A program made the translations under genes and the position numbers. A stretch of DNA of 64,000 nucleotides from Scenedesmus sp. PABB004 (Eukaryota): the NCBI GenBank assembly GCA_014905635.1, contig JABVCE010000015.1, forward strand, positions 682,001-746,000, in the 5' to 3' direction. Under the pieces are notes generated by a model that was not told the DNA's origin, did not search any database, and was given only the letters and a program-made list of their open reading frames with translations. Shown piece after piece: positions 39,101 to 42,227 of the stretch; the first letter of the stretch is position 1, and every line of letters starts with the position of its first letter.

Positions 39101-42100
39101 GCCTGCTGCTTCTCCCGCGCGAGCGCGAGGTCGGTGACCATGCCCTCCATCTTGCTCGTGAACTGCGCGCCGCACTGCTGCTTGAGGCGCGTGAGGATGC
39201 TGCGCTCGTGGTCGTCGCTCGACGACTTGTCCTGTGGTTTGGTGGTTGGTTTGATGGTTTTTGGGTGGTGGGTGGTGGGTGGTGGGGTGGCGAGTGTGGC
39301 GGCGGCGGGCGGGGTGTGAGCAGGGGTCGAGCGGGGAGAGGGGTTTTGCTGGGGGGGGGGGGGGGGGGGGGGGGGCGCGAGGGGAGGGCGTGAACGAGGG
39401 CGGGCGGAGAGGGGGAGCGAGGGAGGGAGCGCCGCGGCGGCACCGGCTGGGGGCGCGCCAGCAAGGCGACTGCTGGCTGGCGCCCAGCCGGCGCCGGCGC
39501 GGCGTTCCCTCCGCCCCGCCCCCGCCCCACGCCCCAACCCCAAGCGACCGCCCGCGCCTCGCCAAACCGACACCAAACCGCACGCGCACGAGGCGCTCGC
39601 GGCAGAGCTCTGCAGAGCCACATCCCCTGAGCCCTGAGCCCTGAACCCAAGCCGCCACACGCACGTGCAGGAGGCAGCGCGCGAGGCGCTCGCGGCAGAG
39701 CCAACAACCCTAAACCCTGAGCCCTGAGCCCAGGCCCCAGGCCACCACGCACGCACGTGCAGGAGGCGGCGCGCGAGGCGCTCGCGGCAGAGCTCTGCGG
39801 CGCAGAGGCCCGCGCGCGGGCAGCACGGGCCCAAACCAAACCGCCCCAAAACCGCGCAAAAACAACAGCGCCGAGGCCAGACAACAGCACGCGGGCGCAC
39901 GTGCAGGAGGCGGCGCGCGAGGCGCTTGCGGTAGAACTCGGCAAAGAGGTCCTTGTCGCTGATGTAGGCGAGCAGGCGGACGACCTTCTCCAGCGTCTCT
40001 TCGATCGCCTCGTCGCTCAGCTTCTCGCTCCCGCCCTGCGGGGCGTAACACGCGGGGCGGCGGGCGGGGGTCAGGCGGGGTTGAGGCGGGGCTGAGGGGG
40101 CGCGGAGCGGGGGAGCGGGCGAGGGCGCTGGGGGGGAAGGGAGAGGGAAGAGGGCGAGGAGGGAGGGGGGAGCGGGGAGGTGGAGAGGGGGAGCGGCGGC
40201 CGACAGGGCGCGGCGGTGCGGCGGCAGAGCGCGCCGCGCGCCCGGCCCGCCCTCCACCCCAAGCCCCGCGCCCCAGCTGAGCCCCTTCTACACCCCGCGC
40301 CTGGGCCCCGCCCAGGCCCCTAAACCCTGCCTGGGCCCCTGCTAAACCCTGCCGCGCGCCTTTTTGAGCAGGTTGTCGCAGAAGTTGGCCATGAGCTCCG
40401 CGCTGGTGCTGCCCGCGACGGCCTTGTTGCAAAACCCCTCAAACGCCTCCTTCAGCGCCTGTGGCGGTTTAGGGGGGGGAGGGGGGCAGGGTTTAGGGGG
40501 CGGACGGCGGAGAGCGGGAGAGGGGGGAGGAGGGCCGGGCGGGGCGCGGGCGGGCGCCGCGGGCGGGGGGCGCGGCCGGCGGCGCGGGCGCGGGCGCGGG
40601 GGCGGGGGCGCGGCCGGGGCGTGGCGGGTCGCCCCTAAACCCCGCGCCCCACGCGTGCCTTGTGGAAGAGGGACGAGTTGGCGAAGCAGGAGCCGACGTA
40701 GCCGAGGTACTTGTCGTGCAGCGCGATGACCTGGGCGGGGCAGCAGGGTTTAGGGCGGGTGGTGCGGGCGGGGTTTAGGGCGGCGGCGGGGGACGCGGGC
40801 GGGAGAGGGAGGGAGGGAGGGAGGGGAGCGCGGCGGCTGCGCGGCGGCAGCGGCGGCGCCCGGCACACGCGCGCGCGCGCCTGTCGCACGAACGCCTGCT
40901 CGTGGCTTGAGCCGCTGTCCTTGCTCGGCTTGCCTGGCGGCGGGGGGCGGGGGCGGGGCGCCAGGGAGGGGTGCGCGGGGTGCGCGCGCGGCGTGAGCGC
41001 TCGCGCGAGAGGGAGAGGGAGGGGCCGGCCGAGCCGCGCAGCCCGCGCGCAGCCCTGCTTCAAGAAGCGACAGAGCAATAACAGTCAAAATGACAACACG
41101 CCCCGCCCCGTGCCTCCCCCCCCCCCCGCACCCGCGTCCTTCTCCTTCTTGGCCTCCACCGCCTCGGCCACCTCCTTGACCAGCTTGGTGCCCTCGCCCT
41201 CCACGTGCTCCCGGAACGCCTCCGCGACGGGGTCGAGGCCCTGCTTGGTGTGAGTTTGGGCGTGGGCGGGTGTGTGAGGGCGGGGGCGAGGGGCGGGCGC
41301 GGGCCGGGCGCCGCCCCGCAGCGCCCGCGCGGCGCCCGCGCGCAGGGCGGCGCCGCTCCCTGCCCGCGCGCTCGCGCGCCCGCTAAACCCCGACCCTTCC
41401 TCAAAGGCAGCCCCTCAAAACCCTAAACCCCGGGGCCCCGCGGCCGCCCCCCACCTTGGGGATGCGCGCAAAGAGGCGGTACATGCGGGCGAGGTCGTCC
41501 GTCTGCGCGCGCGCGGGCGGGGCGCAGGGTTTTGTGGGGCAGCGGCGGCGGCGGCGGGGTTCAGGTGGTGCCAAGCTCAGCAGGGCTGAGGCGCCCACAC
41601 ACAGGGGCGCTCCACACCAGGGCAGCGCACGGCCGGCGCCCGACACACACACACACACACGCCCCACACCCACACCCACACACACACACACACGCCCCTC
41701 CCGGCCTCAGCCGCGCTCCCCGAGCGACAGCTGCTCCGGCTTGAACACACTCGCCAGGCAGCGCCTGGCAAGCGTGTTCAAGGCGGAGCAGATGTCGCTG
41801 GGGGAACGCGTGCAGGGCGGCTGAGGCTGCAGCCGTGGCGTTGACATGCCCGCGGCAGCCCGGCAGCAGCGCGTGCTGCAGCAGGTGCATTATGTTGGTC
41901 GCCGCGCTGTGGTCGCGGTTGACCGTGCGCACGCAGCGGGGGCAGCGCTTGACCCCCCAGATCAGGCGGCCGCGCGGCGCGTCGTGCCGCTCGTGCACGT
42001 CCTCAAGCGGATAGGCTTGAGGATGTGCAGGAGCGGCACGGCGCGCCTGGGCACACGCGCGAGGAGGACTCCTCGGGCACGCGGCGGCAGCCCAAAGCGG

Positions 42101-42158
42101 CGGGCGATGCCCGGCTGCCCCACGCCGGCGCGGCCCGCTCGCGCCCGCGTCGCCGATG

Positions 42159-42227
<69 letters not shown>

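Follow-up and report, generated by a model that had tools for sequence, protein, structure and literature searches.

The minus strand of a 466-nt insert within an intron of a cullin-1-like gene very probably encodes a C-terminal remnant of a TnpB/Fanzor-type nuclease. The insert lies in a 64,000-nucleotide stretch of Scenedesmus sp. PABB004 (contig JABVCE010000015.1, positions 682,001 to 746,000), hereafter called the window, to which all coordinates refer. We are confident that the surviving coding part derives from a Fanzor or TnpB gene. In the explanation that we favour and regard as probable, the insert stems from the 3' terminus of a gene for a Fanzor1-type (TnpB-like) nuclease and has decayed into a relic without function, now inert debris within the intron; most likely, the relic does nothing at present. 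The insert and the part of it that carries the family signal are as follows.

41695 to 42160, minus strand: unique 466-nt stretch between two (GT)n tracts (blastn against the window gave only the self match and one 22-nt match).
41870 to 41965, minus strand: Fanzor/TnpB-like C-terminal relic of about 32 residues with the second CxxC, RD, and AA.NI (Pfam PF07282, our own Fanzor1 profile, simulations, ESM Atlas, and by-eye match to CRe-1 to CRe-5).

The Pfam family PF07282 (Cas12f1-like_TNB, formerly OrfB_Zn_ribbon) aligned with residues 26–44 of a 107-aa piece of frame B (P0001) at profile positions 42–60 of 60, that is, at the end of the domain, with an E-value of 0.0058 and a score of 17.2 bits, which is under the gathering cut-off of 26.3 bits. 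P0001 was a chosen piece, and its Pfam E-value alone is not significant once corrected for all families and places. Regular expressions for the C-terminal motif (C..C/RD/AA.NI), composed after the sequence had been seen, matched at one place in the window; of 200 simulations with a second-order Markov model, none contained the strict form and one the loose form. In the JGI metagenome contigs, a degenerate pattern of 53 nt that corresponds to C..C....NRD..AATNI was found at six places, and all six were near the end of open reading frames (ORFs) above the PF07282 cut-off (E 3.7e-09 to 1.7e-21), three of them also with OrfB_IS605. Two of the metagenome contigs, with G+C contents of 33–35%, contain Fanzor1-like ORFs that both pass PF07282: one of 740 aa (L004:865-3084, minus strand) and one of 358 aa cut by the contig end (L006:49-1122, plus strand). 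Relatives of the former (P0005 and P0007–P0009) also have PF26935.

A profile of our own was built from the last 125 residues of six Fanzor1-like proteins, namely the L004 protein (P0003) and its relatives P0005–P0009; P0004, which is 100% identical to P0003 over the region searched, was left out. Among 882 six-frame ORFs of the window, this profile detected the ORF of the relic with an E-value of 3.3e-4 at 41870–41965, the runner-up having an E-value of 0.41, and the domain score of 15.3 bits was reached by none of 150 third-order Markov windows (maximum, 11.6 bits). The profile is partly circular: its core is favoured by construction because the seed was fetched with a motif derived from the fragment, whereas the flanking matches are not so favoured. 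A full-length Fanzor1 profile found the relic as its sole match in the window, at profile positions 595–625 of 644 (the last ~5%), and no other Fanzor part in the window. In the ESM Atlas, the best scores were 0.96 and 0.95, to giant-virus clusters without a common family, and 20 of 30 matches belonged to the PF07282 set; a genuine cullin exon used as a control had a best score of 0.80.

The layout of the relic can be compared with that of Fanzor1 proteins of green algae in the portions of Bao & Jurka 2013 (PMC3627910) that were available to us. Of the motif given there, D-X(125,275)-[TS]-[TS]-X-X-[C4 zinc finger]-X(5,50)-RD, the relic has the part that comes after the zinc finger, X(5,50)-RD, followed by ..AA.NI. 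The C-termini of CRe-1 to CRe-5 and CVu-1 read E-[FY]-x-T-S-x-x-C-x-x-C, then 18–31 residues and C-x-x-C; RD closes the five residues that follow this second Cys pair, and next come x-x-[SA]-A-x-N-[IMV] and a Leu-rich stretch with ..LLG or ..LMG at its end. The string 'NRDVNA' occurs 11 times in Additional file 3 of that paper. From the second Cys pair onwards, the relic shares this C-terminal layout and spacing, as well as the green-algal host, and it is identical to CRe-3 at 12 of the 31 positions that begin with a V, two residues ahead of that pair, and end with LL (compared by eye only). Its second Cys pair (CPRC) is present and aligned; the first pair could be read as C-x4-C or as CRSC in frame A, 82 nt upstream. 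In the DNA entry of CRe-1 and in the entry before CVu-1 (CRe-4 by file order), an intron stands before the NRD codons (..CAG followed by AACCGCGA..), whereas the relic has no such intron; the source contains no DNA entry for CRe-5 in the portions available. The relic also resembles prokaryotic TnpB (IS200/IS605 and IS607; PF07282) in having CxxC followed by RD.[NS]AA.NI at the end of the TNB domain, but differs from it in its eukaryotic host, its sub-cut-off score, and the lack of an OrfB_IS605 or helix-turn-helix part and of transposon ends. Its likeness to the Fanzor1-like ORFs of the two metagenome contigs and to P0004–P0009 covers 32 aligned residues, in the region of the last Cys pair and RuvC-III; that group consists of intact ORFs of 597–740 aa on low-GC contigs (33–35%), whereas the relic is a broken tail in DNA of 78% G+C.

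Several observations weigh against a Fanzor origin, beginning with the sub-threshold Pfam score and the partial circularity described above. The whole 358-aa ORF around the relic matched no Pfam family. With P0001 as the query, no PDB chain was found at E ≤ 10, none of 2908 candidates among the longer proteins of a word-indexed set of 5.8 billion proteins reached E ≤ 1, and none of 1.84 billion representative proteins reached E ≤ 0.001; significance is out of reach there for a motif of ~30 residues, so that these blanks exclude a close annotated parent but not a distant one. Ten pattern matches in viral contigs yielded no confirmed case, and 316 in the JGI metagenome contigs likewise yielded none. 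The window contains no second copy of 41695–42160 by blastn, and, of the hallmarks of a Helitron2 element, neither the TTTT target nor a 5' end is present at the insert. Further points of this kind, concerning the upstream part, the hairpins of other introns, and the one related contig, are given with the respective results below.

Taken together with the unsupported upstream strings (see below), the Pfam score under the cut-off, the absence of a Pfam match for the whole ORF, and the lack of a homologue in the large protein searches are what would be seen if an ordinary GC-rich palindromic intron happened to spell a TnpB-like end in one of its frames, and a scan of all six frames over 64 kb that is open to every known motif is expected to turn up some weak look-alike. 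We consider such a chance resemblance unlikely. The strict motif appeared in none of the 200 simulations and the profile score in none of the 150 simulated windows; the next best ORF of the real window had an E-value of 0.41; and every one of the six metagenome occurrences of the motif proved to lie in a true PF07282 protein. According to the text of the Atlas tool itself, about one shuffled protein in 100 attains a score of 0.96. The match also exceeds the Pfam core on both sides, the core being preceded by hGllrC and followed by a Leu-rich stretch, and the motif uses AT-rich codons (those of N, I, M, and H) in a window of 78% G+C.

The evidence for a Fanzor1-type relic is confined to a short part of the insert, as becomes clear when the following upstream features are considered.

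42134 to 42157, minus strand: string IGDAGASG in frame B, without family support.
42027 to 42083, minus strand: second string in frame A, including RSC; a possible first half of the zinc finger (−1.9 bits alone, not significant).
41976 to 42047, no strand assigned: hairpin or palindrome (I2) between the two Cys pairs, with 33-nt arms that are 91% complementary and a 6-nt loop (inverted-repeat search and folding).

The preliminary description of this DNA had read the insert as a TnpB/Fanzor remnant of ~465 bp, from three peptide strings in successive frames. Each of the three strings does occur where it had been placed on the minus strand (the second at 42036–42083 in frame A, the third at about 41879–41974 in frame B), but they lie in frames B, A, and B, with two changes of frame, rather than in three successive frames. 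The third string is upheld by the profiles and simulations, while the upstream two thirds of the insert are without family signal; a C-terminal remnant is therefore retained from that description, although only ~32–42 residues carry the signal, rather than a derivative of the full length. The profile comparison that it had called for likewise gave a divided result, with an E-value of 3.3e-4 for our own profile but a Pfam score below the cut-off.

Frame A alone scored −1.9 bits against the Fanzor1 profile, and its piece P0002 matched no Pfam family. When frames were joined across the breaks, each break being filled by X, in 1014 three-part combinations and a set of two-part ones, the best scores were 19.9–21.1 bits compared to 20.2 bits for frame B alone, and 30 triplet-shuffled controls of the joins gave 17.8–23.6 bits. 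Because the joined frames add nothing beyond the shuffled controls, we rejected the upstream part as supported Fanzor sequence, a result that counts among the points against a Fanzor origin; IGDAGASG gained no family support from the same comparison. The family signal spans ~100 nt of the 466. A string SS-RV-C at 42051–42065, in the other frame and at a plausible distance, fits the published [TS][TS]-X-X-C, with a positional chance of ~0.003–0.03 depending on the looseness of the motif; such strings are common, the window containing 112 if the motif is written most loosely and 23 if a second Cys is required. The distance from CRSC to CPRC is 82 nt (27 codons + 1), which corresponds to a +1 frame break, and this interval is spanned by the 72-nt palindrome. 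The catalytic Asp (RuvC-I), which should lie 125–275 residues before [TS][TS], is absent, as the insert begins only ~75 codons before RD, and the insert contains no intact ORF of several hundred residues, the frame being broken.

The setting of the insert is defined by the following features of the host gene and the intron.

42259 to 42429, minus strand: cullin exon ending in ..LLRDDK (residues 224–280 of the cullin P0016, 86% identity by tblastn; Pfam Cullin E 8.8e-08, profile positions 206–260).
42161 to 42247, minus strand: (GC)n followed by a perfect (GT)26 microsatellite on the 5' side of the insert (Tandem Repeats Finder: 42161–42213, period 2, 100% matches; 42213–42247, CG).
41637 to 41693, minus strand: imperfect (GT)n tract on the 3' side of the insert (Tandem Repeats Finder).
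41503 to 42258, minus strand: intron of 756 nt (GT..AG) with its GT donor at 42258–42257, containing the entire finding (donor and acceptor read; flanking exons colinear with P0016).
41455 to 41502, minus strand: following cullin exon, beginning at 41502 after ..GCAG (tblastn, P0016 residues 280–296).

On the minus strand, the cullin-1-like gene extends from 45400 to 36147 in 20 exons, given by 20 tblastn pieces colinear with residues 1–746 of the Tetradesmus obliquus cullin P0016. Pfam Cullin matches upstream of, at, and downstream of the finding cover profile positions 169–208, 206–260, and 337–372, respectively. Over the 59-aa exon, the closest cullins in the collection of 5.8 billion proteins are from Astrephomene, Chlamydomonas, Tetradesmus, Monoraphidium, and Chromochloris (80–87% identity, none identical), and several of them are labelled 'cullin 1' by JGI; by these matches, the host would be a chlorophycean-like green alga. 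The placement of the insert on the minus strand, in an intron of such a gene and sense to it, as given in the preliminary description, was borne out by the colinear exons on both sides. Since the insert lies sense to the cullin gene, it would be transcribed as part of the pre-mRNA, and the co-transcription proposed in that description thus holds as far as position can indicate. From 5' to 3' on the minus strand, the intron consists of (GC)n, (GT)26, the unique 466 nt, the imperfect (GT)n, a pyrimidine-rich tail, and the acceptor. Only five (AC)n runs with n of at least 6 exist in the whole 64 kb, and three of these flank the insert; the (GT)n on both flanks may mean that a microsatellite was the insertion site or that a long stretch of target was duplicated.

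The G+C content of the window, which contains no N, is 77.7%, with stretches of 85–88%, and this level is unusually high even among chlorophycean algae. A telomere-like motif, GGTTTAGGGTTTT (with at most one mismatch), occurs four times in the window (0 expected in shuffles), on the minus strand at 36124–36136, 38220–38232, 39704–39716, and 41417–41429. All four sites are on the cullin sense strand, within or just past the gene, and two of them follow an exon end by 8–38 nt; the motif may be a telo-box-like element or an intron-borne repeat. A scan for bacterial promoters and terminators, which is irrelevant to a eukaryote, returned 0 and 0.

Four freshwater metagenome runs share small parts of 41000–43000. 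Three of the four carry the cullin exon at 42254–42432 with 0–1 differences, and three of the four have no contig matching the insert. The run X3 has a contig of 226 nt over 41736–41979 that differs in 12 letters and has 22 gap letters (~95% agreement where letters are aligned). Within the NI motif of this contig, N is replaced by S and I by M, followed by a replacement of M by L; one base is inserted within the CPRC codons; and 21 bases between 41836 and 41868 are missing. Two of the three substitutions in the arm of the downstream hairpin turn mismatches of the window into Watson-Crick pairs (assessed by hand), suggesting that the ancestral stem was more perfect. The contig lacks flanks and may be the same intron in a related strain or a second copy, and this ambiguity is also to be counted against a Fanzor origin. 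In either case, the pattern has the appearance of neutral decay, both of a dead coding tail and of a palindrome that was formerly more perfect. The preliminary description had held that the lack of any profile match together with the lack of related copies would refute it; what was found, a sub-threshold Pfam match and this one contig of 226 nt, falls only narrowly on the other side.

Besides the palindrome between the Cys pairs, the insert contains a second and longer inverted repeat.

41704 to 41827, no strand assigned: hairpin I1 (with I9), whose core at 41712–41810 has 48-nt arms that are 88% complementary and a 3-nt loop (inverted-repeat search and folding).

An outer 19-nt stem extends this hairpin to its full 124 nt, ending 9 nt before the downstream (GT)n. 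As RNA, the 3' 211 nt of the insert folds with z-scores relative to shuffles of −9.06 (minus strand) and −8.33 (plus strand) (−142.3 kcal/mol in sense vs −138.2 kcal/mol in antisense), and the z-score of the entire 466-nt stretch is −9.24. Long hairpins are also present in other cullin introns (38022–38118 and 43557–43637), a further point against the explanation by a Fanzor1 relic. With such structures elsewhere in the gene, a guide-RNA scaffold gains no specific support from the hairpin of the insert, and hairpins may be a trait of the introns of this genome rather than of the element.

The hairpin at 38022–38118 has 38-nt arms (95% complementary) and a 21-nt loop; upstream of it stand (GC)7, telomere-like repeats, (GT)7, and a run of G, a layout that recalls the intron studied here, but it has no sequence likeness to the hairpins of that intron. 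At 43000–43870, between the cullin exons ending at 44123 and starting at 42818, a 283-bp unit is repeated 3.2 times (81% matches, 87% G+C), and each unit contains a near-perfect hairpin, such as that at 43557–43637 with 35-nt arms (97% complementary).

The stability of the stems in the insert raises the question of a present effect, in which the 124-nt stem, and perhaps the 72-nt one, would be a Dicer substrate or a splicing modifier. The only Rfam matches were to models of microRNA precursors, all far below the gathering scores (36 vs 168 bits and 30.9 vs 84 bits), and we rejected them as family evidence; they mirror the hairpin shape alone. The restoration of pairs by two of the three arm substitutions in the X3 contig, which implies a more perfect ancestral stem, could be taken as a sign of function, but neutral decay of a palindrome would account for the mismatches just as well, and both strands fold about equally well, as is the case for a DNA palindrome. 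We therefore think an active intronic hairpin quite improbable. Broader still is the notion that the relic has been domesticated as an intron-hosted RNA module, its sense-oriented 3' end and 124-nt stem being set free from the cullin intron to serve as either a scaffold for a guide loaded in trans by Fanzor or a precursor of small RNAs processed by Dicer, which we regard as very improbable.

The preliminary description had suggested that the insert could supply a guide RNA in trans to a full Fanzor elsewhere in the genome. Under this model of a guide-RNA copy (omegaRNA or fRNA), the 3' end of the insert would be processed from the cullin pre-mRNA and loaded by that Fanzor. There is precedent for parts of this scheme. 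According to Jiang et al. 2023 (PMC10530073), reads of the fRNA map to the 3' UTR in the mRNA of Chlamydomonas reinhardtii Fanzor1c (CrFNuc-1), and 20 further conserved fRNA copies without the gene are present in that genome; in Saito et al. 2023, omegaRNAs overlap or follow the ORF end. A text search of the accessible part of Yoon et al. 2023 (PMC10711439) found no mention of Chlamydomonas or green algae. Like the gene-less copies of CrFNuc-1 fRNA, the insert is a piece corresponding to a gene 3' end and UTR without the nuclease gene in a green alga; furthermore, the fold of the part that follows the motif is far more stable than those of shuffles, slightly more so in sense, and the insert is sense to the host gene. 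The CrFNuc-1 copies, however, are described as 'highly conserved' and match an expressed small RNA, whereas the one contig related to the relic has deletions after the ORF end: with 21 bases missing between the motif and the hairpin in the X3 contig, conservation does not extend to the sequence that directly follows the ORF. For an element with its end at ~41695, the guide would be the flanking (GT)n tract, which would not be a meaningful target. In addition, the full-length Fanzor1 profile revealed no nuclease gene within the 64-kb window, comparable hairpins occur in introns without a Fanzor signal, and CrFNuc-1 itself showed no cleavage in vitro (PMC10530073). On these grounds, a stand-alone guide RNA is the least credible of the explanations considered here and, in our judgement, hardly to be expected.

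We return to a dead relic of a Fanzor1-type gene as the most economical explanation. A transposon would have carried a piece of the gene into the cullin intron, and the piece would have been truncated at its 5' side on or after insertion. By the Chlamydomonas precedent, the carrier may have been a non-autonomous Helitron2 element: the C. reinhardtii Fanzor1 families CRe-1, CRe-2, and CRe-3, each of more than 100 copies, consist of non-autonomous Helitron2 elements, and the Fanzor1/Helitron2 copies of Chlamydomonas are 'frequently 5'-truncated' with intact 3' ends (PMC3627910, in the portions available). The survival of only the tail can be explained by this known 3' bias of truncated copies, and selection on an RNA need not be invoked. 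The insert is like the CRe families in having a hairpin near its 3' boundary but, unlike CRe-1 to CRe-3, has no TTTT target and no recognisable asymmetric terminal inverted repeat; its 124-nt hairpin is far longer, and the decay of its coding part has gone much further. By eye, the 3' ends of the insert and of the CRe elements have a 10-mer and a 7-mer in common, which we rejected as meaningless at 78% G+C. In this scenario, the surviving part of the protein would be the last Cys pair of the zinc ribbon and the RuvC-III end 'RD..AA.NI'; the upstream reading frame would have been broken and partly overwritten by the 72-nt palindrome; and the 124-nt hairpin stands downstream of the relic. The relic would be transcribed with the cullin pre-mRNA and then spliced out with the intron. 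The transposon origin, the 5' truncation, and the neutrality of the relic are the presumed elements of this account, drawn from the sequence and the algal precedent.

The demonstration of an intron-derived, trans-acting guide RNA would be needed to make the finding new in principle, and, if the RNA-module explanation were true, an RNA derived from a transposon would be tied to the expression of a housekeeping ubiquitin-ligase gene. A dead relic would leave existing knowledge unchanged, as 3'-biased truncated Fanzor1 copies (PMC3627910) and gene-less fRNA copies (PMC10530073) are already described for Chlamydomonas in the parts of these papers available to us. If the explanation that we favour is correct, Fanzor1-type elements were once active in a very GC-rich, chlorophycean-like alga that is absent from the protein collections searched (best cullin, 87% identity), and Fanzor1 debris in introns would be recognisable from a motif of ~30 residues. 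The recognition of such relics would be useful for genome annotation and for choosing the genomes to be mined for Fanzor nucleases.

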